Source of the DNA: a virus
Taxonomy: Duplodnaviria > Heunggongvirae > Uroviricota > Caudoviricetes
Virus record (IMG/VR): IMGVR_UViG_2617270988_000017
Length of the DNA: 12,893 nucleotides
Strand: one strand, 5' to 3'
Each line of letters opens with the position of its first letter. Position 1 is the first letter of the stretch. A model generated the notes under the pieces. The model saw only the letters and a list, made by a program, of their open reading frames with translations, did not search any database and was not told the DNA's origin. Both the position numbers and the translations under genes were made by a program. This document shows positions 1-12,893 of this stretch, piece by piece.

Positions 1-1461
1 ATGAAAAAATTACTGCATCTTTTTTTCCCGCTCTCGCTGCGGGTACGTTTTCTGTTAGCAACGGCAGCAGTAGTATTGGTGCTTTCGCTTGCCTACGGAA
101 TGGTTGCGCTGATCGGTTATAGCGTCAGTTTCGATAAAACCACGTTTCGGCTGTTACGTGGCGAGAGCAATCTGTTCTATACCCTTGCGAAGTGGGAAAA
201 CAATAAGTTGCATGTCGAGTTACCCGAAAATATCGACAAGCAAAGCCCCACCATGACGCTAATTTATGATGAGAACGGGCAGCTTTTATGGGCGCAACGT
301 GACGTGCCCTGGCTGATGAAGATGATCCAGCCTGACTGGCTGAAATCGAATGGTTTTCATGAAATTGAAGCGGATGTTAACGATACCAGCCTCTTGCTGA
401 GTGGAGATCATTCTATACAGCAACAGTTGCAGGAAGTGCGGGAAGATGATGACGACGCGGAGATGACCCACTCGGTGGCGGTAAACGTCTACCCGGCAAC
501 ATCGCGGATGCCAAAGTTAACCATTGTGGTGGTGGATACCATTCCGGTGGAGCTAAAAAGTTCCTATATGGTCTGGAGCTGGTTTATCTATGTGCTCTCA
601 GCCAATCTGCTGTTAGTGATCCCGCTGCTGTGGGTCGCCGCCTGGTGGAGTTTACGCCCCATCGAAGCCCTGGCAAAAGAAGTCCGCGAACTGGAAGAAC
701 ATAACCGCGAATTGCTCAATCCAGCCACAACGCGAGAACTGACCAGTCTGGTACGAAACCTGAACCGACTGTTAAAAAGTGAACGCGAACGTTACGACAA
801 ATATCGTACGACGCTCACCGACCTGACCCATAGTCTGAAAACGCCACTGGCGGTGCTGCAAAGTACGCTGCGTTCTCTGCGTAGTGAGAAGATGAGCGTC
901 AGTGATGCTGAGCCGGTAATGCTGGAGCAAATCAGCCGCATTTCACAGCAAATTGGCTACTACCTGCATCGTGCCAGTATGCGCGGCGGGACATTGCTTA
1001 GCCGCGAGCTGCATCCGGTCGCCCCACTGCTGGACAATCTCACCTCGGCGCTGAACAAAGTGTATCAACGCAAAGGGGTCAATATCTCTCTCGATATTTC
1101 GCCAGAGATCAGCTTTGTCGGTGAGCAGAACGATTTTGTCGAGGTGATGGGCAACGTGCTGGATAATGCCTGTAAATATTGCCTCGAGTTTGTCGAAATA
1201 TCTGCAAGGCAAACAGACGAGCATCTCTATATTGTGGTCGAGGATGATGGCCCCGGTATTCCCTTAAGCAAGCGAGAGGTCATTTTCGACCGTGGTCAAC
1301 GGGTTGATACTTTACGCCCTGGGCAAGGTGTAGGGCTGGCGGTAGCCCGCGAAATCACCGAGCAGTATGAGGGTAAAATCGTCGCCGGAGAGAGCATGCT
1401 GGGCGGTGCGCGGATGGAGGTGATTTTTGGTCGCCAGCATTCTGCGCCGAAAGATGAATAA
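1..1461 (+). CDS. phoQ: Sensor histidine kinase PhoQ of the PhoPQ two-component system, complete
   Basis: The 486-aa translation reads as E. coli PhoQ essentially end to end from memory (MKKLL...[15 protein letters not shown]; periplasmic acidic patch EDDDDAEM; H-box [12 protein letters not shown]; C-terminal [12 protein letters not shown]). ATG at 1, TAA at 1459-1461. Confidence 0.97.
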
Positions 1462-2815: not shown

Positions 2816-3358
2816 TTACTCGCCTTTCTTCTGTAGCAACTTTTCCGGTACGTTTCCGGTTGTTTCTTTCAAGTAATCAGTCAGTATCTGTGGGAGGTTG
2901 TCGGCAACTCTGGCACTGGCATTACAGGCTTTAACCACTTCCCTTTTAAGCCTATCCAGCATGGCGGGGGTAATCTGTGGGAAGCTCCTTTGCATAGTAA
3001 GCGGGAGGCTGTCCATGATTGATGAAATCTGACTCGCCAGCTTTGAAAGCGCGTACAGGCAAAACTCAGTATCAATCACGTCACCGCGATCGCGCTCGTT
3101 TTTAAGTTCCTGCGCCTCCGCCTGTGCTGTCAGTAATCTGATCCTGACTCGTAAGAGTTCATCATCATCAATATCGCCTTTGTCGTTTGTAAGCTGGCTA
3201 ATTGCATTGTTAACCCTATTGTCTATCACGCTGGCAACATCATAAAACGCCTCACGGCCTTTACGTTCAACGGGAGTCACTCCCCACTTGTCGAACGCTG
3301 TCGCACTTACACGGCAGCTTTTCGCCATGTTTTTTTTGTTCATCAGGTGCGATTTCAT
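2816..3358 (-). CDS. Terminase small subunit, lambda Nu1 family
   Basis: The 180-aa product aligns along its length with lambda Nu1 recalled from memory: N-terminal winged-HTH region (NKKNMAKSCRVSATAFDKW vs NKKQLADIFGASIRTIQNW) and C-terminal region (LTAQAEAQELKNERDRGDVIDTEFCLYALSKLASQISSIMDSLPLTMQRSFP vs LTRAQADAQELKNARDSAEVVETAFCTFVLSRIAGEIASILDGLPLSVQRRFP). ATG at 3358-3356. Confidence 0.9.
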   Translation of the reverse strand: MKSHLMNKKNMAKSCRVSATAFDKWGVTPVERKGREAFYDVASVIDNRVNNAISQLTNDKGDIDDDELLRVRIRLLTAQAEAQELKNERDRGDVIDTEFCLYALSKLASQISSIMDSLPLTMQRSFPQITPAMLDRLKREVVKACNASARVADNLPQILTDYLKETTGNVPEKLLQKKGE

Positions 3359-3360
3359 TA

Positions 3361-3534
3361 ATACACCAACTTAATTACTGCTTCAGGTTGGTGTATTGTT
3401 TGCATCTTTCCCTTTTTATTCATAAAGATAGATCAAACAACGAAACCACCACCACCCCCCTGAAAAGGCTCATAAATAGCGAAAAACCGCTAGGTCGCCG
3501 CCCCGTAACGGGCCATAATTCCAGGAAGGACCCG
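3361..3534 (-). other. Lambda-type cos site, right copy (cos-R): cosQ-like, cosN, divergent cosB, directly upstream of terS
   Basis: 3493-3534 is the near-perfect reverse complement of 2593-2635 (42 of 43 positions, one 1-nt indel), with the cosN 12-mer AGGTCGCCGCCC at 3492-3503. On the minus strand it continues CGGTTTTTCGCTATTTATGA (lambda-like), then diverges (CAGGGGGGTGGTGGTGG) and ends in the 10-bp inverted repeat ATACACCAAC (3361-3370) / GTTGGTGTAT (3387-3396) beside the terS ATG. The cosN-cosB-terS order and orientation match lambda. Confidence 0.75.
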
Positions 3535-3535
3535 T

Positions 3536-3558
3536 AAAAAAGCCGGATTTCTCCGGCC
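3536..3558 (-). terminator. Rho-independent terminator ending the capsid operon
   Basis: Minus-strand stem GCCGGA-gaaa-TCCGGC followed by T6 (plus-strand A-run 3536-3540), 6 nt after the stop of the 137-aa ORF. Confidence 0.75.
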
Positions 3559-3563
3559 TTGTC

Positions 3564-3977
3564 TCAGATGGTTTTCAGTATGCGATCGATGTCGCCGTCA
3601 TCGCCCTGGTTTCTGCCATCGTATGCCATGCCAGCTGATACGGCTTGCGGGCTGTGCATGTCCATAAAGTTTTCAAAGGCTGCGGTAAGTTCCGGCGCAA
3701 CCTTCGGACGTTCCTGCTCTATGGTCATGCTAAGGATGCTTTTAGCCGTACCAACATCGATACAAGGCACGTTTGCCATTGCACGCAACAGCGGCTGATA
3801 GTCTTTATGCTCATGAAGCGCCATAATCGCATCAGCGCGCGGCTTGTCCTGCTCTTCCAGTTTGTTTAGTTGATATACGGCCTCATAGGTTGATAAACCT
3901 CTGTCAGCCATTGCCCGCGCTTCGACTTTAAATTTACTCGCCAGCGGTAGCGTCATGATGCTTTCATTCGTTGCCAT
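3564..3977 (-). CDS. Hypothetical protein, 137 aa, last gene of capsid operon
   Basis: ATG at 3977-3975 is preceded by a strong SD (AGGGGGAA) and follows the decoration-gene stop with a short gap. No family recognised. Inferred to be capsid-associated from context only. Confidence 0.65.
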   Translation of the reverse strand: MATNESIMTLPLASKFKVEARAMADRGLSTYEAVYQLNKLEEQDKPRADAIMALHEHKDYQPLLRAMANVPCIDVGTAKSILSMTIEQERPKVAPELTAAFENFMDMHSPQAVSAGMAYDGRNQGDDGDIDRILKTI

Positions 3978-3989
3978 CGTTCCCCCTGC

Positions 3990-4325
3990 TTATCGGGCCA
4001 GCGGCTGAACGGATACGCCGGAACCCGCAAAGGCGGCGCATTTTTTCGCATCGGTGTCGACGCTCTCAGGCCAGTTAACGGCGGCAATATTGAATATCCC
4101 CGTCTTGTAACACTGTGCTGATTTCTGCTTTGACGTGCCCACAGGGTACGAGGTCAGATAAACAGCCTTGCCAGATTCCTGACCATCCCACGGCTTAAAC
4201 TCGCCATTGTCTGCCAGCATCAGCGGGGTAAATTCCTGAATAACGCCAGCATCAGCGGCAAAATGTACCAACGTCGTGGATACCTGCTGACTGCCTGCAA
4301 ATAACTCAATGTATGGAGTGTCCAT
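3990..4325 (-). CDS. Head decoration protein, lambda gpD family
   Basis: The 111-aa product matches lambda gpD from memory ([23 protein letters not shown] vs [59 protein letters not shown] vs [36 protein letters not shown]). SD GGGGGGA upstream of the ATG at 4325. Confidence 0.85.
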   Translation of the reverse strand: [111 protein letters not shown]

Positions 4326-4337
4326 AGAATCCCCCCG

Positions 4338-5393
4338 TTAACCAATTTTGACGGTAACAAATTTGCGAATATCTGCCGGTACCGGCTGCGGTGCACTGTG
4401 TGTCTGCACGTACTCAATCGCCGGATCGCCGTCCTCAATCCAGTTTTTCGGGTAAAACATGTTTTGTGTTGCGCCCGTTCTTACCGCTTCCTGATCCATT
4501 ATCGCACCATAGGCCACCAGCCCTTTATTGTTGGTGTTACCCAGGACCAGCAAATCAGGCTCAAGGAAATATTTTTCGGTACCATCGCTGTCAGTGTATT
4601 TGCCGGAATAGACGATAAGGGCCAGATCACCAAGATAGCCTTTAAAGCTCACCACTTCGCCCAGGTTTTTACAGGCCAGTTCGGCGGCGGATTCTGAACC
4701 ACGGGAAAGATCGTACAGCTCACGGAATTTTTTAAAGCTGCCTAATGTGCGCCATACCTCAGCGCCCATAATCATGACGTTTGCGGGGCAACCAGCCTGA
4801 TCAGCATAAAGCTCGATGTCATAGATTGGGTCGTGCATGTCTTTATCCTGCTCGGACCATTTTTTACCCTTGGCCTGCTCTATGATGCAGTTTTCCGGTA
4901 TTTTCCAGTCGATTTCATAGCGTTCTATGCCTTCGCCCTCAATGATGTTTTTTCCGGTCGTTACCGCATTCACCGCCAGCCATTCCACGCGTGCCTTAAT
5001 GGCGTTTATCTGGCGGCGCATGTTGCCAGTAATCAGGCGCATACGGCGATAGGTAGGGTCGTTAAGCTGTGCCGGATCTTCTCCAGCCATGCGCATGATG
5101 GTTTTCGTTGGATCGATTTCGTGCTTTGGCTTCATGTAGCCAGGTTTGATTGTGCTGGTTTCGTACCCTTTATCGCGCTGAACCTGGCTACCCACCATAG
5201 GCGAACAAAACGCCGACATGGTGACTTCTTCAATGTCCAGGGTATCCAGCATGATGTTTTGCGTGCTGAATGTCGCCACGTTCGGGAAAAACAGCGTGGT
5301 AAACAGAGGGCTGAATTTAAAATCCGCAATATCCCCGCGATTCAGGTACATGAAAAGCTGGTTAGTGTTAAGTGCCGTTGCTTTGCCTGCCAT
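4338..5393 (-). CDS. Major capsid protein, lambda gpE family (HK97 fold)
   Basis: The 351-aa product aligns with lambda gpE over its full length by eye, at moderate identity (for example KPGYMKPKHEIDP vs TPGYVKPKHEVNP; DPTYRRMRLITGNMR vs DPAYRRRRIIMQNMR; LVLGNTNNKGLVAYGAI vs MVLGNTQARGLRTYGCI; YPKNWIEDGDPA vs YPKNWVTTGDPA). SD GGGGGTGA. The E-then-D gene order is the reverse of lambda. Confidence 0.92.
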   Translation of the reverse strand: MAGKATALNTNQLFMYLNRGDIADFKFSPLFTTLFFPNVATFSTQNIMLDTLDIEEVTMSAFCSPMVGSQVQRDKGYETSTIKPGYMKPKHEIDPTKTIMRMAGEDPAQLNDPTYRRMRLITGNMRRQINAIKARVEWLAVNAVTTGKNIIEGEGIERYEIDWKIPENCIIEQAKGKKWSEQDKDMHDPIYDIELYADQAGCPANVMIMGAEVWRTLGSFKKFRELYDLSRGSESAAELACKNLGEVVSFKGYLGDLALIVYSGKYTDSDGTEKYFLEPDLLVLGNTNNKGLVAYGAIMDQEAVRTGATQNMFYPKNWIEDGDPAIEYVQTHSAPQPVPADIRKFVTVKIG

Positions 5394-5599
5394 TATTCAC
5401 CCCCATAATTTTTATGCATCCCAAGCGCCGCAAGTAAATAAGAGCGTACAAGTGAACCTATCGACGGCTCCGGCGTCATCAGCGGATCCAGTCCAGCCGC
5501 AACGCCAGCTTCATAGTTTTTTTTGTGGCGCTGCTTGAGCACCTCCACGATTTCGGGGCTTATGTACACCGAAACACCGCCTTTTTTCTCTTCAGCCAT
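5393..5599 (-). CDS. Hypothetical protein, 68 aa, first gene of capsid operon
   Basis: In-frame ATG at 5599 (MAEEKKGG...) preceded by GAGG. Its stop overlaps the capsid-gene start (TAATG), implying translational coupling. The track's longer start at 5632 has no SD. Confidence 0.5.
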   Translation of the reverse strand: MAEEKKGGVSVYISPEIVEVLKQRHKKNYEAGVAAGLDPLMTPEPSIGSLVRSYLLAALGMHKNYGGE

Positions 5600-5649
5600 A
5601 GTAAGAAATTCCTCTTCGACTAAAAAAATCATAACTGGATGTTTATCCA

Positions 5650-5684
5650 GTCCTGATTATAATCAGAATTGCATTTTATGCAAT
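5650..5684 (-). promoter_or_regulatory. Candidate sigma70 promoter for the capsid operon, embedded in two palindromes
   Basis: Minus strand reads TTGCAT (5683-5678), a 16-nt spacer, then TATAAT (5661-5656). The -10 lies inside the perfect 14-bp palindrome CTGATTATAATCAG (5653-5666) and the -35 inside TTGCAT-ttt-ATGCAA (5669-5683). The first ORF starts about 55 nt downstream. Confidence 0.5.
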
Positions 5685-5764
5685 GATATTGAGTTATGTT
5701 GCAAATTATGAAATGATTATCCCGATCACGAACGCCAGTGCATCCAAAAACCTCATATGCAAAA

Positions 5765-5802
5765 GCCCGATAAGAACCCTCTGACCTTATCGGGCTTTTT
5801 TT
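5765..5802 (+). terminator. Rho-independent terminator, plus-strand orientation, probably bidirectional
   Basis: Stem GCCCGATAAG (5765-5774) / CTTATCGGGC (5786-5795) with a 11-nt loop, followed by T7 (5796-5802). There are four U on the minus-strand side. Confidence 0.6.
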
Positions 5803-5808
5803 GGGCGC

Positions 5809-5830
5809 AAAAAAGCCGGATTGCTCCGGC
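5809..5830 (-). terminator. Rho-independent terminator downstream of the 74-aa cassette ORF
   Basis: Minus-strand GCCGGA-gcaa-TCCGGC followed by T6. Same stem sequence as the terminators at 3536-3558 and 6172-6194. Confidence 0.7.
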
Positions 5831-5850
5831 TATGTGTGCTGTGTGCTGGC

Positions 5851-7152: not shown

Positions 7153-7348
7153 CCTCTCACTTTTTCGCCTCACTTTTTCAAGCGTCTCACTTCGTCGCAG
7201 TTGGGATTTTCGGTTTTTCTATGTGTGTGTTTCATAAGTATTTTTTTACCCCTCACTTTTGAGGATGTATACAGGTCGAAAAGTGAGGGAGAGCGGGCTA
7301 ATTTTGGCCCTCTTTCTATCCCCCTCGCTTTTGCTCCTCACTTTTATA
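7153..7348. repeat. Iteron array, putative origin of replication of the element
   Basis: CTCACTTTT-type repeats at 7156-7165, 7169-7178, 7186-7192, 7252-7260, 7278-7289 (inverted), 7323-7333 (variant CTCGCTTTT) and 7336-7347, plus an AT-rich stretch at 7230-7248. It lies immediately 3' of the rep gene, as is typical of satellite and plasmid origins. Confidence 0.55.
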
Positions 7349-8743
7349 GCGGCGCTACATCATCCCCATCGATACGAATAACCCCATCTTTTTCCAGCTT
7401 GTACAGCCAGCGCCGGAAGTTTTTCATTTCATACCCCAGCTTTTTCATGTCATCACGTAACAGCGGGATCGTGCACTTGTCGCCGTTCTGTGTGCGTGAA
7501 CGGATGCACCCCCATAGCGCGGTATGGTTTTCCGTCTTGTTCCCTGCCTCCTCGATGCGCTCCAGTTCAACAGGAGGGCGCGGATCATCCACCACCACCA
7601 GCGACGTGATTAATTCACCGTCAGCGTCGGTAAAAAGCTCCACCACGCGTAAGTCATATGCGGCTTCTTTGAGTTCCTCCGCGTCCTTCATTTTGGTGCA
7701 TGAGATAACCAGCGCTTCGCTTCCTGCGTCCTCCCTGCGTATCCGGTATTCAGCATCCAGCGAAGCACGAAATGCACTGGAACCGCGCGCGCCTTTCGTC
7801 TCATCCTTGCCGGAATGGTGAACCACCAGCACCGTGGCCCCTGTGCGTCGTTTCAGTTCGTCACAACCACGGATAAACGCCCCATATCACGGGAATCATT
7901 TTCATCATTCCCACCAAAGCAACGCGCCAGCGTATCCAGAATAATCATGCGTACAGGTTTACCCGTTTCCCGCTCCACCTGACGGGCAGCGATAACCATT
8001 TCATCAACATCAAGCGGGGCAGCCGGAAAGATGGGGCGGTTTACCAGATACAGATTTTTCACCTGCTCATCGTGCACAACCTCCCAGGCTTTTACACGAC
8101 GCGGAACACCTATACCGCCTTCACCAACCACATAGAGAACCGCACCATGTGCAACCCTGCGGCCTCCCCACTGGCGACCAGTGGCAACATGGCACGCCCA
8201 CGATCCGGCAAGGAATGATTTATAGGACCCGCTAGCCCCGTATATGCTGCATAGCGATACCGCCGGAATAATCCCCTTAACCACGTAATCCAGTTGCGTG
8301 TCGTATCCGGTAGATCCAACGCTCATCGGTAGCGTGGTTTTTCGCTGGTGGTTTTTTTCTTCCGCCGGCTCTTTCCCGCGCACCCGTTCCAGGTATTCGC
8401 GCCAGTTCTCCCGCATATGGCTGTGCATCCCTTCGGGGTAATAATTCGCATCAGTTACACCCGCCGCCGCCAGCTTGTGCGCAATGGCATTAATATTTGA
8501 TGGCCTGATGTGGCCTGCCTTGTACAGCCGGACACAATAGCGCCCCTCGTCGATGATTCTCAGGTCTGCCAGTTCATCCAGTTGATCATCAGCCAGCACA
8601 ACGGGAGGCACATTATCGCCAGCCAGTCGCCCGTCCTGTTCCTGCCACTGTTTCGCATGTGCCCAGGCATCACTACCCGCAAAAATAATGACTTCGGTCA
8701 TCTTGTCGTAAGGCTGTTTTTTTAAGTTCGGTGCGCTTTTCAT
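7344..8743 (-). pseudogene. Replication protein (primase/helicase-like, RepA-type P-loop ATPase with C-terminal winged-helix-like tail); reading frame interrupted near 7880
   Basis: The N-terminal ORF (8743..7853) has a Walker-A-like GASGSYKS and ILDTLARCFGG. The C-terminal ORF (7832..7344) continues in another frame with VVHHSGKDETKGARGSSAFRASLD, typical of RepA/AAA_25-like ATPases. The total span is 1400 nt, not a multiple of 3. The frames join if the G4 run (plus-strand CCCC 7880-7883) is G5, giving ...DSRDMGAFIRGCDELKRRTGATVLVVHH... Confidence 0.7.
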
Positions 8744-9039
8744 TTCTTGCCCCTGAATCCGTTAACCATGGTTTTCAGCTTCTGGATGTTTGCCCGTGCC
8801 CTGGCGTTGCTGGTGGGCACGTTATGCGGCGCGGTCTGTACCAGAGAAAAATCACGCCGGAACTGATAAACAGGCATCACGCAATCATATTCGTAACCTT
8901 CACGGCGGTAAGTTACGCACCGTCCCGCCACGCCCTTAATCATTACCGTGCCGCCGTACTGGTCGCGGTAAATATCACCGCGCGTAAATTTAGGGTGAGT
9001 GTTGCCACTGGCAGTTAAGCCAGAATATTTAAGTTTCAT
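8740..9039 (-). CDS. Hypothetical basic protein, 99 aa
   Basis: ATG at 9039 with GGAG upstream. The stop overlaps the rep start (ATGA). No family recognised. Confidence 0.55.
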   Translation of the reverse strand: MKLKYSGLTASGNTHPKFTRGDIYRDQYGGTVMIKGVAGRCVTYRREGYEYDCVMPVYQFRRDFSLVQTAPHNVPTSNARARANIQKLKTMVNGFRGKK

Positions 9040-9044
9040 TATTT

Positions 9045-9278
9045 TTATTCTCCGGTGTGCTGTTCGTTATATCTGTCGTGCAATGTCTCTATTTCCTGCA
9101 ACTCATTTATTACAGGCTCAAGAAGCGTTATTAATGCCGTGACAATTCTTGATTTTTGTTTGTCGCGTTCATTGTCGCCAAGTGTTTCAAGCCATATGCG
9201 CAATATTTCGTACATACCTTCAGCGTAAGCAAGGGCACTAAATGCGCGGTCTATTGTTTCGTGGTAAATATCACGCAT
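9045..9278 (-). CDS. Hypothetical small acidic protein, 77 aa
   Basis: ATG at 9278 with SD GGGGA. Net acidic and helical-looking. Tightly packed with neighbours (1-5 nt gaps). Confidence 0.55.
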   Translation of the reverse strand: MRDIYHETIDRAFSALAYAEGMYEILRIWLETLGDNERDKQKSRIVTALITLLEPVINELQEIETLHDRYNEQHTGE

Positions 9279-9501: not shown

Positions 9502-9715
9502 AACCCCCCCCATTTTCACAATCAGCAACAAGAATATTTTTAGCGTCATTCAGCGACCGCGTTGCGATGTATCGGATACATTCCAGGGCGAACTGTGTCC
9601 GGTCTTTCTGTTCTTCTCCCTGCGCAAGCTCTGCAGTGCATTCAATATCGATAAGCGCGTGCATCAGCGTAGTGAGCGCGTCGGCTGCTGCGTCCGGTGT
9701 GGTTTTATTGCACAT
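9494..9715 (-). CDS. Hypothetical small acidic protein, 73 aa
   Basis: ATG at 9715-9713 (MCNKTTPDAAADAL...) preceded by a strong SD (AGGAGGTG). It ends in NGGGYA encoded by a G8 run and overlaps the next start. Confidence 0.6.
   Translation of the reverse strand: MCNKTTPDAAADALTTLMHALIDIECTAELAQGEEQKDRTQFALECIRYIATRSLNDAKNILVADCENGGGYA
9504..9511. repeat. C8/G8 homopolymer at a gene junction
   Basis: Eight consecutive C on the plus strand (G on the coding strand). It encodes the GGG tail of the upstream ORF and lies 2 nt before the ATG of the downstream ORF. Confidence 0.9.
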
Positions 9716-9896
9716 GGCACACCTCCTGACGAATACGGGCGGCGAATACAGCAACACAACCGGACGGGCAACGGCTACGCGCTTCGCGTTCCGTCCAGGC
9801 GGTTACGTGGATGATTTGATGTTCTGACGCGCCAAAGATGATAAAGCGCCAGAGAAAGGCGGTTTGAGAATGTACAAGGGTAGGGATAGTAGCCAT
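9705..9896 (-). CDS. Small protein, 63 aa; possibly Icd-like (host cell division inhibitor family), tentative
   Basis: ATG at 9896 with SD GAGGAGG 8 nt upstream, TAA at 9707-9705. The WRF and FAARIRQ motifs resemble what I recall of Icd-like small proteins from P4-like islands, but this is unverified. A diverged tandem copy lies 369 bp upstream. Confidence 0.5.
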   Translation of the reverse strand: MATIPTLVHSQTAFLWRFIIFGASEHQIIHVTAWTEREARSRCPSGCVAVFAARIRQEVCHVQ

Positions 9897-10056
9897 GTTG
9901 GCAGCCTCCTCAGTGTGGTTAAGATAACCGCCACCGGAAACGCCAATTTCGCTGGTGGCGGACTGTACAGGGTTGGCGTAACCGGACACTGAAGAAACCG
10001 GCGCGGATTGCTCCGCCCCCGTACAGCCCACCATTGATAAGGTGTGACTATGCGGC

Positions 10057-10082
10057 ACAAAAAAACACGCGGGGCGCGTGTT
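10057..10082 (-). terminator. Strong Rho-independent terminator signature inside the upstream tandem copy
   Basis: Minus strand reads AACACGCG-CCC-CGCGTGTT followed by TTTTTTT (plus-strand A7 at 10059-10065). It is GC-rich with an uninterrupted U-tract. Confidence 0.65.
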
Positions 10083-10265
10083 ATGCGCTTCAGTTTTGCC
10101 CAGGACGCCAATCCCGGCACCCGTTTTATGAGGTGCGCGGGAATCATAGCTATTTTCGACACTGGCGATCAACTGGTTTTTTTCTCCGATATTCAGGGCC
10201 AGAAAACGCCACACAAAGGCCGTTTGTGTGTGTACAAGGTGTGGTATATGATTTACGGCAACCAT
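10083..10265 (-). pseudogene. Degenerate tandem paralogue of the 63-aa ORF (or translated leader); no in-frame stop before the terminator
   Basis: ATG at 10265 with SD AGGAG. The first 30 or so codons are homologous to the downstream ORF (PHLVHTQTAFVWRFLAL vs PTLVHSQTAFLWRFIIF) with synonymous and conservative changes. The frame then runs through the terminator without a stop, and a C-terminal-like motif (RVFLCRI vs AVFAARI) appears only in another frame. Confidence 0.35.
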
Positions 10266-10293
10266 AACGGCTCCTAGTTTACGTTGTTGGTTA

Positions 10294-10328
10294 GACGCCC
10301 CGTATGTGTTCCCAGCACTGCGGGGCGT
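10294..10328. promoter_or_regulatory. 8-bp inverted repeat ACGCCCCG / CGGGGCGT with a 19-bp spacer in the divergent control region
   Basis: Arms at 10294-10301 and 10321-10328, in the 5' leader of the minus-strand small-ORF operon and upstream of the RHH promoter. Confidence 0.4.
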
Positions 10329-10353
10329 TGATTTTTGTGTAATGGCAAGTACA

Positions 10354-10395
10354 ATGGTAATTACCATGTAGGTATAGTAATGAAGGGTAATTACC
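10354..10395. promoter_or_regulatory. Two GGTAATTACC operator-like palindromes at the RHH gene promoter
   Basis: Perfect 14-bp palindrome ATGGTAATTACCAT at 10354-10367 and GGTAATTACC at 10386-10395, centres 30 bp apart. The second abuts the RHH ATG. A TATAGT -10-like hexamer is at 10373-10378. Confidence 0.6.
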
Positions 10396-10569
10396 ATGTC
10401 AACACCATTAGAAAAACGTTCGCCTCCATACCAAATGCGATTACCGGAAGACTTCAGAGCGCAGCTAGAAGAAGCAGCTAAGGCCGATGGCGACACATCT
10501 TTAGCCACTTGGATTAAACGCGTTCTCCGCAAAGAATTACAGCAACGCGGCATAGAACCCAAAGGATAA
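10396..10569 (+). CDS. Ribbon-helix-helix (Arc/CopG-like) DNA-binding protein, 57 aa
   Basis: ATG at 10396, TAA at 10567-10569. The product MSTPLEKRSPPYQMRLPEDFRAQLEEAAKADGDTSLATWIKRVLRKEL has the typical RHH pattern (beta-strand YQMRLP, then two helices). It is absent from the ORF track because it is under 60 aa. Confidence 0.7.
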   Translation: MSTPLEKRSPPYQMRLPEDFRAQLEEAAKADGDTSLATWIKRVLRKELQQRGIEPKG

Positions 10570-10611
10570 AAACTATCAGCGCCGTGGTGTGAGGTATTAC
10601 GGCGCATTGCT

Positions 10612-10800
10612 ATGCAGGACAACACAATGACCGATAAAGAATTGACCAAAACATTATCACCGGCACGGAAAAGACGGCGCAGAAAGATAGAGCATGAATC
10701 AGAAAGATTCGCGCCATGTGCTTTTGCCCTTGAGCAATTCCTTAAAGAGTACAGGGAAAAGCGCTCATTGCAGGTATGGCAACGAACTGAACCAGACTGA
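10612..10800 (+). CDS. Hypothetical small basic protein, 62 aa, downstream of the RHH gene
   Basis: ATG at 10612 (alternative ATG at 10627 with AGGA upstream). It contains an ARKRRRRK basic patch. The coding call is weak. Confidence 0.4.
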   Translation: MQDNTMTDKELTKTLSPARKRRRRKIEHESERFAPCAFALEQFLKEYREKRSLQVWQRTEPD

Positions 10801-10894
10801 TTGCATTGCCCACCAGCCTGATAGCGGCTATCATCCCCGTGCTTATGTTTGGGATCACATACACATAAGGCGCAGCGGGTTAATTGTTCAGAAA

Positions 10895-10922
10895 GGCGGC
10901 TCCATATCGGGGCCGCTTTTTT
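10895..10922 (+). terminator. Rho-independent terminator between convergent alpA and the RHH operon
   Basis: Stem GGCGGCTCC (10895-10903) / GGGGCCGC (10909-10916) followed by T6 (10917-10922). Confidence 0.65.
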
Positions 10923-10948
10923 CGTGTTTGTCATATCTGTGATACCCG

Positions 10949-11155
10949 TTAAGCAGCCGTTCCGCGTGCTTCCTCTTCGCGTTCTTTCTGCCAGGACAAC
11001 ACATCATCCTCATACCATCCGCGACGGCGTAAACCAACGCGAAAACCCTGCGGAAATTCTCCGGCGTTGATCATGCTTTGCAGCGTGCTGTCTGCCTTGA
11101 TGTGGATAATTTTTTTTACTTCCTGGCGAAAGATAATTTTTCTGATTGCTTCCAT
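10949..11155 (-). CDS. alpA: AlpA-family phage transcriptional regulator / excisionase-like protein
   Basis: The 68-aa product matches the AlpA pattern (IIHIKADSTLQSMINAGEFPQGFRVGLRRRGWYEDDVLSWQ vs CP4-57 AlpA ...TGMARATIYDWLNPKSPRYDATFPKKRMLGVKSVGWIEAEIDEWL). ATG at 11155. Confidence 0.8.
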   Translation of the reverse strand: MEAIRKIIFRQEVKKIIHIKADSTLQSMINAGEFPQGFRVGLRRRGWYEDDVLSWQKEREEEARGTAA

Positions 11156-11288
11156 CGTGATTTACCTTGTGAATCCGGTGTATTCCGGTGACAAATACGG
11201 TAAATCATCGGATATGGGTAAAAACAGTTCCCACCGTTTTTAAACGGTATACACCGTTTTTTATATTGATGATTTGAAATGGAATTAT

Positions 11289-11311
11289 AAAAAAAGCGGC
11301 ATTTCTGCCGC
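11289..11311 (-). terminator. Rho-independent terminator after the int-proximal small ORF
   Basis: Minus-strand stem GCGGCA-gaaa-TGCCGC followed by T7 (plus-strand A-run 11289-11295). Confidence 0.7.
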
Positions 11312-11322
11312 TTCCAGGATTG

Positions 11323-11574
11323 TTACCGCCATTTTTTGGGCCTGCCTCCGATCTTCATAGATGCCGGACGTACGACCTTATCAATACTTACCGCCAGATT
11401 TCTGGAAGCGCCACGGGATACCAGAAAATCTACTACCTGTTTTTTTGATGGGGCCGTCGTTCTGTCCTCCGGATCGTAGGTTGACCAAAATTCATGCTGA
11501 ACCATCAGGGCCAGTTGCAGCCCGTCGCAATTGCATCTGATATTTTTTTGCATCTTAACGGTTTCATGTTTCAC
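11323..11574 (-). CDS. Hypothetical small basic protein adjacent to integrase, start uncertain
   Basis: The track start at 11574 is GTG. The first in-frame ATG is at 11553 and lacks a clear SD. The basic C-terminus reads IGGRPKKWR. No family recognised. Confidence 0.45.
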   Translation of the reverse strand: MKHETVKMQKNIRCNCDGLQLALMVQHEFWSTYDPEDRTTAPSKKQVVDFLVSRGASRNLAVSIDKVVRPASMKIGGRPKKWR

Positions 11575-11651
11575 GGCCTTGTCGTTAAATTTGATGCAAT
11601 TATACGACGGTTTTACATGGTTTTCGTAGTTTTTACTGGTTTTCTGTACAG

Positions 11652-12893
11652 CTACACGGCTCGGATACCCCTTTTACCACTGGCGAGGGTTACGCCCGTC
11701 GCCGCAGCCTCGACAAATTCGCCCCACCAGCGCATCAGCACGATGCGTTTTTCTATGTAGTTGCTCCGGTTGTATGCCCGTCTAACTTCGTTGGTGTCGA
11801 CGTGGGCAAGTGCCGCCTCTATTACGTCCGGCTCGAATCCTTCCTCGTTCGCTGCTGTGCTGAATATGGCGCGTAATCCATGAGACACCAGCACGCCAGC
11901 GAATCCCATACGCCGCAATGCTGCGTTAGCTGTCTGGCTGTTCATCGGCTGCTGTGGGTCTTTCAGACTTGGGAAAACGTAATTGCGGTGGTGGCTGATT
12001 GGTTTCATGGCCTCCAGCACCGCCATAGCCTGACCGGAAAGCGGGATAACGTGATCCCTGCGCATCTTCATGCGTCCGGCAGGTATCGTCCATTGCTTCG
12101 CGTCCAGGTTGATTTCATCCCACCGCGTTGATGACGCTTCGGCGGGACGGGTTACGGTCAGTAACTGCCATTCAATCAGTAATCTGGTCTGCCGTTCTGT
12201 TGCCGATACTGATAAAGCCTGCATAAGCTCGGGCAGCTGTTCGGGGCGGATTGTTGGCATATGTTTTTTTACAGGTGAGGGAAACGCCTTACGCACATTC
12301 ATAGCCGGATTGGCATCAATCAGCCCACTGTTGGCGGCGTAATCCATTACCTCATTAACGCGCTGTAAAACCCGCTTGAGTGTTTCCAGGTTGCCGCGCT
12401 CCTTGATGGGGGTAAGCACTTCAACGAACCTTCGGGCGGTGAGGGTATCTATTGGCGTGTTGCCGATGAACGGGAATACATATTTATCCAGCGAACGCCA
12501 GATGTCTTTAATCGTGTTGGGGGCCAGATTCTGGCTGATTTTCACCTGGTACCATGCCGCCGCCACATTTTCGAACGTGTTCCCTTGTCTTCGGGCCTCT
12601 GTCTCTCTTTTTTGCCTCTCGTGGTCCTGCGGGTCAGTTCCGGCACTGATTAACGTCCTGTACTCGCTACGGCGTTTTCTGGCATCAGCCAGGGAAACAT
12701 CTTCAAGCGATCCAAAACTCAGCAATATTCTTTTTTTGTCCGATGGTCGGTAGTAGGAAAATCTCCAGAGTTTTGATCCAGACGGTTTGACCAGGAGAAA
12801 AAGCCCTCCGCCGTCCTGCAGGGTGTACTCCTTTTGCGCTGGTCTGGCTGCTTTGATCTGCACTGTGGTTAATGGGTGTGTTTTTCTCGCCAT
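11652..12893 (-). CDS. int: Site-specific tyrosine integrase, P4 family
   Basis: 413 aa with an N-terminal arm-binding-type region (KEYTLQDGGGLFLLVKPSGSKLWRFSYY) and a C-terminal catalytic domain (HGLRAIFST...RAYNRSNY). The ATG is at the last three bases of the window, so the upstream region and att site are outside it. Confidence 0.95.
   Translation of the reverse strand: MARKTHPLTTVQIKAARPAQKEYTLQDGGGLFLLVKPSGSKLWRFSYYRPSDKKRILLSFGSLEDVSLADARKRRSEYRTLISAGTDPQDHERQKRETEARRQGNTFENVAAAWYQVKISQNLAPNTIKDIWRSLDKYVFPFIGNTPIDTLTARRFVEVLTPIKERGNLETLKRVLQRVNEVMDYAANSGLIDANPAMNVRKAFPSPVKKHMPTIRPEQLPELMQALSVSATERQTRLLIEWQLLTVTRPAEASSTRWDEINLDAKQWTIPAGRMKMRRDHVIPLSGQAMAVLEAMKPISHHRNYVFPSLKDPQQPMNSQTANAALRRMGFAGVLVSHGLRAIFSTAANEEGFEPDVIEAALAHVDTNEVRRAYNRSNYIEKRIVLMRWWGEFVEAAATGVTLASGKRGIRAV

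Follow-up and report, generated by a model that had tools for sequence, protein, structure and literature searches.

The window analysed here is a stretch of 12,893 nucleotides from a virus record (IMG/VR IMGVR_UViG_2617270988_000017; Caudoviricetes). We take it to be a Gram-negative phage-inducible chromosomal island (PICI) because its gene organisation matches that of such islands; its type is that of EcCICFT073. The island is about 11 kb long and lies between phoQ and a tyrosine integrase gene (int), with every island gene on the minus strand. EcCICFT073, a model island, has the same chromosomal site, the same late zone, and the same promoter as the window. Our subject is this probable promoter, which lies upstream of a cassette of four late genes (the capsid operon) whose products include homologues of the major capsid protein (E) and the head decoration protein (D) of phage lambda (Table 1). 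An earlier note, made from the sequence alone, described a near-consensus sigma70 promoter built from two palindromes, and it suggested that the palindromes are operators for a dimeric repressor. We argue that the better candidate operator is a third dyad, which covers the predicted transcription start and resembles a LexA (SOS) box.

The probable capsid promoter and its three dyads

The four genes are insulated by two terminators upstream and by another after the last gene, so the promoter heads an insulated cassette. The upstream terminators differ in their distribution. Terminator 1 is conserved and is the last stretch in common with the capsid-forming PICI (cf-PICI) of E. coli EDL933 before the late cassettes diverge. 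Terminator 2 is the left edge of the conserved late cassette, and its stem is invariant among the relatives. From terminator 2 onward, the cassette moves as a unit behind varied upstream genes (PerC, SSB, and others).

Table 1. Features of the window. Positions are those of the whole stretch; + and - are the strands.
Feature	Position	Strand	Remarks
phoQ	1-1461	+	One end of the window
Cassette-closing terminator	3530..3557	-	GGCCGGAGAAATCCGGC + T6; followed by cos
137-aa protein, last cassette gene	3564..3977	-	Similar to the C-terminal region (scaffold) of head maturation proteases (phrog_53, 6e-9)
Homologue of the lambda D-type head decoration protein	3990..4325	-	PF02924, 6e-17
Lambda E-type major capsid protein homologue	4338..5393	-	PF03864, 2e-49
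68-aa open reading frame (ORF), cassette gene 1	5393..5599	-	PHROG 3255 (function unknown); candidate small DNA-binding protein, ribbon-helix-helix (RHH) assignment unverified
5' untranslated region (UTR)	5600..5646	-	U-run and Shine-Dalgarno sequence AAGAGGA (5616..5610)
LexA/SOS-box-type candidate operator	5633..5652	both	GACTGGATAAACATCCAGTT; CTG-N10-CAG; contains the third dyad
Third dyad	5634-5651	both	ACTGGAT-gttt-ATCCAGT (7-4-7); abuts the 14-bp palindrome; absent from the earlier note
Predicted transcription start	5647..5649	-	Placed 7-9 nt after the -10
14-bp palindrome	5653-5666	both	CTGATTATAATCAG; perfect; its core TGATTATAATCA contains the -10
-10 hexamer	5661..5656	-	TATAAT
Proximal (-35) dyad	5669-5683	both	TTGCAT-ttt-ATGCAA = TTGCATTTTATGCAA; extends to a 7-3-7 dyad, ATTGCAT-ttt-ATGCAAT, at 5668-5684
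-35 hexamer	5683..5678	-	TTGCAT; TTG retained
Distal site	5698..5714	-	ATTTCA-taatt-TGCAAC; one-mismatch copy of the -35 dyad unit TTGCA-N5-TGCAA
Terminator 2, bidirectional	5765..5803	both	AAAAAAAGCCCGATAAGG...CTTATCGGGCTTTT; -20 to -22 kcal/mol on either strand
Terminator 1, intrinsic	5806..5831	-	AGCCGGAGCAATCCGGC + T6; -12.5 kcal/mol, z -4.3; ends the early/replication transcript after a 74-aa gene
alpA-type gene	10949-11155	-	Encodes an AlpA-type regulator
Second LexA-type box	11634-11653	-	AGCTGTACAGAAAACCAGTA; heterology index 7.03; immediately after the int stop codon
Tyrosine integrase (int)	11652-12893	-	Other end of the window

The most plausible promoter for the capsid operon, judging from its elements, is a sigma70-type promoter at 5656-5683 on the minus strand. 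The words "near-consensus" suit the -10 hexamer, which matches the consensus at six of six positions, but not the -35 hexamer, which matches TTGACA at three of six, or the spacer, which at 16 nt is one below the 17-nt optimum. Because the -35 has fewer than four matches, a consensus promoter scan did not list the site. After that scan passed over it, we used a rough position weight matrix (PWM) of our own, in which the site ranks seventh among those in the window. The promoter is on the right strand, it lies 49 nt upstream of the Shine-Dalgarno sequence and the ATG of the 68-aa ORF (the ATG is at 5599, 57 nt past the -10), two terminators precede it, and its region is more conserved than synonymous sites. 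We regard the assignment to the capsid operon as reasonable but unproven.

Both of the palindromes in the earlier note are exact and lie where it had put them. The 14-bp palindrome does contain a perfect TATAAT, as claimed, but the hexamer sits 1.5 bp away from the centre. Owing to the symmetry of the palindrome, TATAAT can also be read on the plus strand (5658-5663). The -35 dyad overlaps the -35 hexamer and the upstream part of the spacer. Dyads with arms of at least 7 and loops of at most 4 are 4-5 times commoner in the window than in 300 dinucleotide-preserving shuffles (17 versus 3.8 +/- 1.9). Three of them, which do not overlap, lie within 51 bp at the promoter, and such a cluster (within 55 bp) was found in none of the 300 shuffles, so the clustering is non-random.

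On our reading, the two palindromes of the earlier note make up the core of the promoter. The 14-bp palindrome is largely the -10 hexamer plus its TGAT/ATCA flanks, which are conserved and are not explained by known contacts of the polymerase. There is no second copy of the 14-mer in the window with three or fewer mismatches. In one relative (L014:280-310), the 14-mer lacks one T and becomes CCTGATATAATCAG. The loss disrupts the palindrome and gives rise to a canonical extended -10 (TGnTATAAT). The 68-aa gene of this relative is frameshifted; the contig is just 1.2 kb, so a sequencing error is possible.

To measure conservation, we gathered relatives from diverse complete E. coli genomes, from contigs that encode homologues of the 68-aa protein, from 81 viral-database contigs with the promoter pattern, and from 80 loci that were found independently via the capsid protein. 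Together these four sources gave 74 unique sequences, which we use for all counts unless stated otherwise. A set of 5,426 complete E. coli genomes includes about 600 in which the region is conserved. In species-representative genomes, a scan with the capsid protein found no relative, and the promoter pattern gave only 12 chance matches in unrelated AT-rich taxa.

Nucleotide diversity (pi) is 0.063 in the 5' UTR, 0.094 in the core promoter, and 0.115 in the region from -37 to -77; in the adjacent gene, third codon positions have a value of 0.222. Across E. coli, Salmonella, and Lelliottia, conservation of the promoter region exceeds that of synonymous sites by a factor of 2-4. The TATAAT is invariant (74 of 74), and the 12-bp core of the palindrome was found at 79 of the 80 capsid-protein-anchored loci. 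The core of the -35 dyad (TTGC..GCAA) is kept in 70-74 of the sequences.

The symmetry of the two palindromes does not seem to be maintained as such. The TTGCAT that perfects the -35 dyad is present in only 22 of the 74 relatives, with no compensating change in the others. Most have TTGCAC instead, and TTGCGC, TTGCGA, and TTGCTC also occur. The opposite arm is broken in four sequences. The outer pair of the 14-mer is seen in all four combinations (C..G, A..T, A..G, and C..T), with an association between the two positions (Fisher p = 7e-4) that was calculated across sequences that are not independent. The symmetry of these two palindromes is thus only partly conserved. Also, because the whole region is constrained, conservation alone cannot show that symmetry matters.

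A LexA-type box over the predicted start

The LexA box of enterobacteria has the consensus TACTGTATATATATACAGTA, which is a 20-bp imperfect palindrome with CTG-N10-CAG (PMC3009722, Table 4). A search of the window for CTG-N10-CAG picked out 5635-5650, within the third dyad. We scored sites with the heterology index (HI), using our own matrix from 19 E. coli boxes, 16 of which were checked in Table 4 of PMC3009722. The site at 5633-5652 has an HI of 5.61, while the 19 known boxes range from 0.75 to 12.6 (leave-one-out). It is the best LexA-type site in the window, and a best HI this low or lower is seen with a probability of 0.001 in 2000 shuffles. It has the same arms as the box of ruvA (CGCTGGATATCTATCCAGCA). 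The candidate box in the window begins 4 bp past the -10 and would span about -4 to +16 of the predicted start; since it adjoins the -10 and covers this start, bound LexA would block initiation.

The box is retained in 73 of the 74 relatives, with HI of 4.3-8.5. At the same locus, the HI is 6.76 in Salmonella, 5.49 in Lelliottia, and 6.11 in EcCICFT073, and Lelliottia carries the canonical CACTGTTTTTTCATACAGTT at the homologous position. In EcCICFT073, the equivalent of the window's 5600-5730 is NC_004431.1 1385330-1385460. A recurrent variant (ATCCAG to ATACAG) breaks the palindrome and shifts the site towards the LexA consensus (HI of 4.56). More broadly, the changes among the relatives are at positions that LexA tolerates. 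This pattern of variation appears to fit a LexA site better than it fits a generic palindrome or an RNA stem.

A second LexA-type box follows the int gene and is kept in at least 20 related loci. Two such sites together were found in none of the shuffles. About 30 nt downstream of the second box is a TATAAT, and after this TATAAT come an 83-aa ORF without annotation (11323-11574) and a terminator (11315..11292).

From these sequence comparisons, we think it probable, though far from certain, that the four genes form a LexA-repressed, SOS-inducible capsid cassette with the sigma70 promoter at 5656-5683. In a resting cell, a LexA dimer would sit on the 20-bp box at 5633-5652, covering the start, and would keep an otherwise strong promoter off. 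DNA damage would lead to RecA-stimulated self-cleavage of LexA and hence to derepression of the cassette. The same damage signal induces lambdoid helper prophages, so the satellite's capsid operon would be turned on in step with its helper. The switch would be independent of AlpA; the two terminators wall the cassette off from the AlpA-driven early transcript. The idea of a repressor operator in the earlier note was right in spirit, in that a dimeric repressor is plausible, but neither the dyads nor the protein that it chose were the right ones: the third dyad is the best candidate for an operator, and LexA was not among the proposed binders. PerC, which was among them, is dispensable, since perC is missing from a number of islands (L007, L008, L011, L189, and L012) that have this promoter.

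Several observations weigh against LexA control of the cassette. At positions 6 and 15 of the box, the window has G/C in place of T/A (CTGG..CCAG), a feature that the boxes of ruvA and cho also have. No LexA-type site is present in the L190 clade, in Edwardsiella, in the type B cassettes (described below), or in the cf-PICI of EDL933 (best HI above 12), and with four related cassette lineages lacking it, LexA control cannot be universal. LexA also gives no account of the -35 dyad or the distal copy of it, nor of the sequences that flank the -10. According to published work, the induction of alpA in EcCICFT073 depends on the helper and not on the SOS response, so SOS alone would not mobilise the island. 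Finally, the capsid-operon start, LexA binding, and SOS induction are all read from sequence, and the sole map of transcription start sites (TSSs) that we found, which is for EDL933, concerns a sister island with a different late cassette; a search for such maps of the Sakai and Nissle strains turned up none.

Other explanations for the promoter region

The -35 dyad looks more like a real site than the -10 palindrome does, because its unit recurs 30 bp upstream, in the highly conserved distal site, and is duplicated in Edwardsiella. The distal site, with its centre at about -57, is the only other copy in the window and is the most conserved element of the region (pi = 0.015). Edwardsiella has two full copies of TTGCA-N5-TGCAA, about 32 bp apart. 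Both this clade and an E. coli clade of 63% identity keep both dyads and are missing the LexA box. The -35 dyad and its distal copy may be the site for a second factor.

This factor could be the 68-aa protein, the RHH candidate of the earlier note. As an RHH-like dimer or tetramer, it would bind the -35 dyad, the distal copy, and TGATT-N2-AATCA over the -10. We consider such autoregulation possible, but we would not bet on it. It would give negative feedback and dosage-dependent expression when the island replicates, and it could coexist with LexA control. The 68-aa gene is the first in the operon and always accompanies the inverted-dyad type of promoter, and the half-sites of the dyad are one helical turn apart. 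Conversely, the type B cassettes (L276-L355 and L191/L192) lack both the 68-aa gene and the two inverted dyads. Instead, they have three or four direct TTGC-N6 repeats (TTGC-N6-TTGC-N6-(A/T)(T/C)GC, 10 bp apart) upstream of an extended -10, and their decoration gene is directly followed by a gene for a second AlpA-like protein (114-127 aa). Whether the repeats are direct or inverted goes with the identity of the small putative DNA-binding gene in the cassette. This is compatible with the 68-aa protein being a cassette-encoded regulator, but the co-occurrence may also reflect common descent, and the symmetry is not kept at the inner positions of the -35 dyad or at the outer pair of the -10 palindrome.

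By direct reading, the sequence pattern of the 68-aa protein fits RHH motifs (GGVSVYISP-EIVEVL and PSIGSLVRSYL), and an AlphaFold2 (AF2) model has an extended N-terminus and two helices. However, the RHH label that the earlier note gave it was confirmed by no profile or fold search. The protein has no match in Pfam, NCBIfam, or PDB sequences, even at permissive E-values. A profile search of 1.8 billion proteins found just 18 clusters, which are its own small family, with no link to RHH families. With tblastn, it had no match in 50,697 phage genomes.

Alternatively, a factor from the helper or the host might recognise phased TTGCA motifs (at -55, -34, and inverted at -24) and activate or repress the late promoter upon infection by the helper. 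TTGCA(Y) motifs are found upstream of the capsid gene in every type of cassette, even those without the 68-aa gene, and the extreme conservation of the distal site could be explained in this way. The lambda CII box is a direct repeat, TTGC-N6-TTGC, that straddles a poor -35 and is followed by a weak -10. Lambdoid helpers encode CII, and the spacing of the type B repeats is that of the CII box. In the window, however, the motif is TTGC-N5-ATGC and inverted, so neither spacing nor orientation suits CII, and the -10 is perfect, unlike that of CII-dependent promoters; direct TTGC-N6 repeats occur only in type B. The half-sites also resemble those of CytR operators (TGCAA-N2-3-TTGCA with CRP sites within 5 nt), but they are in the reversed orientation (TTGCA-N5-TGCAA) and there is no CRP-like site in 5600-5800. 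In a blastn search of 5590-5760 against the 50,697 phage genomes, no similar DNA was found. The alpA-type gene has repeats in its upstream region, but these bear no relation to the motifs of the late promoter. Overall, we view control by a helper or host factor as unlikely.

Some other regulators were tried on the palindromes and rejected. Fur, sigma54, IHF, MarA, and extended -10 readings fit poorly by eye. LexA does not fit the 14-mer, where the spacing is wrong (CTG-N8-CAG), the CTG and CAG are not conserved, and the HI is 31.5.

We think it less likely than control by a helper or host factor that this is a plain constitutive promoter whose palindromes are by-products of the self-complementarity of TATAAT, of the AT-rich context, and of the recent spread of one cassette. 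Such a promoter would account for the conservation of all of -85 to +50, in which symmetric positions are not singled out, and for the several symmetric positions that vary freely. The sister island also provides an argument for it. E. coli EDL933 (L195, NZ_CP008957.1 1679000-1698000; locus 8800-9140) carries the capsid-forming EcCIEDL933 at the same roxA-phoQ site; this island is identical to the window through the 74-aa gene and terminator 1 and then has a non-homologous, HK97-type late cassette. In published Cappable-seq data for EDL933, there is a TSS at 1687918, which is 206 nt upstream of the EcCIEDL933 capsid gene, in seven of eight uninduced conditions, and we found no LexA-type site in the region upstream of that gene. 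The earlier note had reasoned that a strong, constitutive-looking late promoter would be costly, and this TSS weakens that premise, albeit from a different sequence. On the other hand, by-products would not explain why three adjacent dyads were seen in none of 300 shuffles, why a LexA-grade site was seen in 0.1% of shuffles, or why this non-coding region is so much more conserved than synonymous sites across three genera.

Another idea is that the promoter is bidirectional, with the plus-strand TATAAT yielding an RNA of about 135 nt that ends at terminator 2. The T-run of this terminator is better on the plus strand, and the plus-strand candidate ranks 16th by our rough PWM, but its -35 is poor (TGGATG or CTGGAT, with 2-3 of 6 matches), there is no gene on the plus strand, and conservation in the region is lowest at 5726-5764, in the middle of the putative RNA. 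A search of the promoter region against Rfam found nothing at the gathering threshold and only sub-threshold, terminator-like matches on the plus strand (AsxR and AgvB). We think a bidirectional promoter very improbable.

We give the least credence to control at the RNA level, with the third dyad as a 5' hairpin (GACUGGAUAAACAUCCAGUU) plus U7. Such a hairpin might be a stem that stabilises the mRNA, or else an attenuator or terminator, perhaps one on which a Q-like antiterminator acts. The hairpin folds (-9.4 kcal/mol, z -4.3), our terminator scan flagged it, and PMC7547250 describes lambdoid late promoters as constitutive and controlled by terminators, but the stem starts just 4 nt after the TATAAT (so that with a start at 5647-5649 the 5' arm would lose 3-4 nt), there is a gap of 3 nt between the stem and the U-run, there are no compensatory changes and the common ATACAG variant breaks a G-C pair, and the L190 and Edwardsiella clades are missing the hairpin and still have the U-run.

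The rest of the island and comparison to known systems

Ahead of the late zone, the island encodes, in order, an AlpA-type regulator, a C4/isrK immunity-RNA zone, a RepA-type helicase, SSB, and PerC. Upstream of the alpA-type gene (11200-11290, minus strand) are AACGGTgtatACCGTT and repeats of AAAACGGTG, which are candidate AlpA sites. In the immunity-RNA zone, Rfam identifies a C4 antisense RNA (77.6 bits) adjoining an isrK Hfq-binding RNA (66 bits), at 9951-10038 and 10060-10136 on the minus strand. The pair is an immunity-RNA module of the P1/P7 type, and a 409-aa ORF that overlaps it (9705-10934) is probably spurious. The helicase gene is split in the window (ORFs at 7344-7832 and 7853-8743, minus strand), and in the O157:H7 relative L001 it is a single intact gene of 1401 nt. 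The split is likely a frameshift or a pseudogene, so the window's copy of the island may be unable to replicate.

The late zone encodes the lambda E-like capsid and D-like decoration proteins, the 137-aa protein that resembles a scaffold, and a Nu1/Rpp-like protein, and it also has a lambda-type cos site. The similarity of the 137-aa protein to the scaffold part of head maturation proteases suggests that it is a Nu3-like scaffold. Together, the E-like, D-like, and 137-aa proteins are a partial lambda-type head set that is encoded by the island. Deletions of c1499/c1500 gave no phenotype (PMC6092414). The Nu1/Rpp-like gene (2816-3358) lies between two inverted repeats of about 80 bp (2593-2669 and 3459-3534), and in each of them there is a lambda-like cos core (CCCGTTACGGGGCGGCGACCT...). 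In the relative L189, the Nu1/Rpp-like gene is on the strand opposite to the capsid gene, so the cos-flanked segment may be invertible.

The published accounts of Gram-negative PICIs that we read cover only AlpA and the early genes, and say that alpA is not SOS-responsive; we found in them no description of how the capsid and packaging genes are switched on and no statement of LexA control for late genes. If LexA does repress the capsid cassette, this would be a simple answer: the satellite listens to the damage signal that induces its lambdoid helpers. About a ninth of complete E. coli genomes have an island of this family, to which the model EcCICFT073 also belongs. LexA control would also bear on engineered PICI "drones" and on probiotic or engineered strains of the Nissle type, in which SOS-inducing drugs would be predicted to activate capsid genes. 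As a mechanism, the LexA box would be a new instance of a known regulatory design, which is a modest advance and not a new kind of mechanism.

We also offer, as speculation that we do not expect to hold in full, a more general model. The late zones of Gram-negative PICIs might be interchangeable cassettes, each with its own AlpA-independent control. In type A (the window and EcCICFT073), this would be LexA at +1 plus the 68-aa protein as an autoregulator at the inverted TTGCA dyads, and in type B, the direct TTGC-N6 repeats plus the cassette's own AlpA-like protein. The capsid genes would then answer to the host's damage signal rather than to the helper, and the SOS box by int would tie the integration module to the same signal.

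Among known systems, the late promoter PR' of lambdoid phages, which is constitutive and is controlled by Q antitermination at a downstream terminator, resembles the window in that a strong-looking late promoter of a lambda-related capsid module is followed by a hairpin and a U-run. Unlike PR', the window has no recognisable Q-binding element or well-placed terminator, and its hairpin, which varies in its presence from clade to clade, would be shortened if the start is where we predict it. The immI region of P22 (Arc/Mnt) and the CopG-type RHH autorepressors of plasmids are similar in that the first gene encodes a small protein and that half-sites spaced by about one helical turn overlap the -35 and -10. 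This likeness covers the -35 dyad, the distal copy, and the -10 dyad of the window. The differences are that the RHH fold of the 68-aa protein was not confirmed by any profile or fold search, that the symmetry is only partly conserved, and that the 30-bp spacing to the distal site is unusual for RHH arrays.

The candidate LexA box has closer parallels. The SOS boxes of ruvAB and cho (that of cho is CACTGGATAGATAACCAGCA) share its CTGGAT...ATCCAG arms and its 16-bp CTG-N10-CAG frame, and its HI is in the functional range. Colicin promoters have LexA boxes just downstream of the -10, much as the box in the window abuts the -10 and covers the predicted start, but colicin promoters carry two overlapping boxes and the window's promoter has a single one. 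Unlike all of these, the predicted box is on a mobile satellite and upstream of genes for capsid structure.

The system most like the one we propose is operon I of the pathogenicity islands found in Staphylococcus aureus (SaPIs), which encodes packaging and capsid morphogenesis and is under repression by LexA (Ubeda et al. 2007, Mol Microbiol 65:41, cited in PMC6092414). The SaPIs differ in that they are Gram-positive and in that neither their LexA motif nor their genes (terS, cpm, and ppi) are those of the window. Their master regulator is a repressor, Stl, while that of the window's type of island is an activator, AlpA. LexA control was demonstrated experimentally for the SaPIs, and for the window it is predicted from the sequence. 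In both cases, a late, packaging-related operon of a satellite would have its own promoter and a site for the host's LexA, apart from the master regulator, and its expression would be timed by the SOS response together with that of the helper prophage. If our prediction is correct, the capsid cassettes of islands in E. coli would be a convergent parallel to operon I of the staphylococci.

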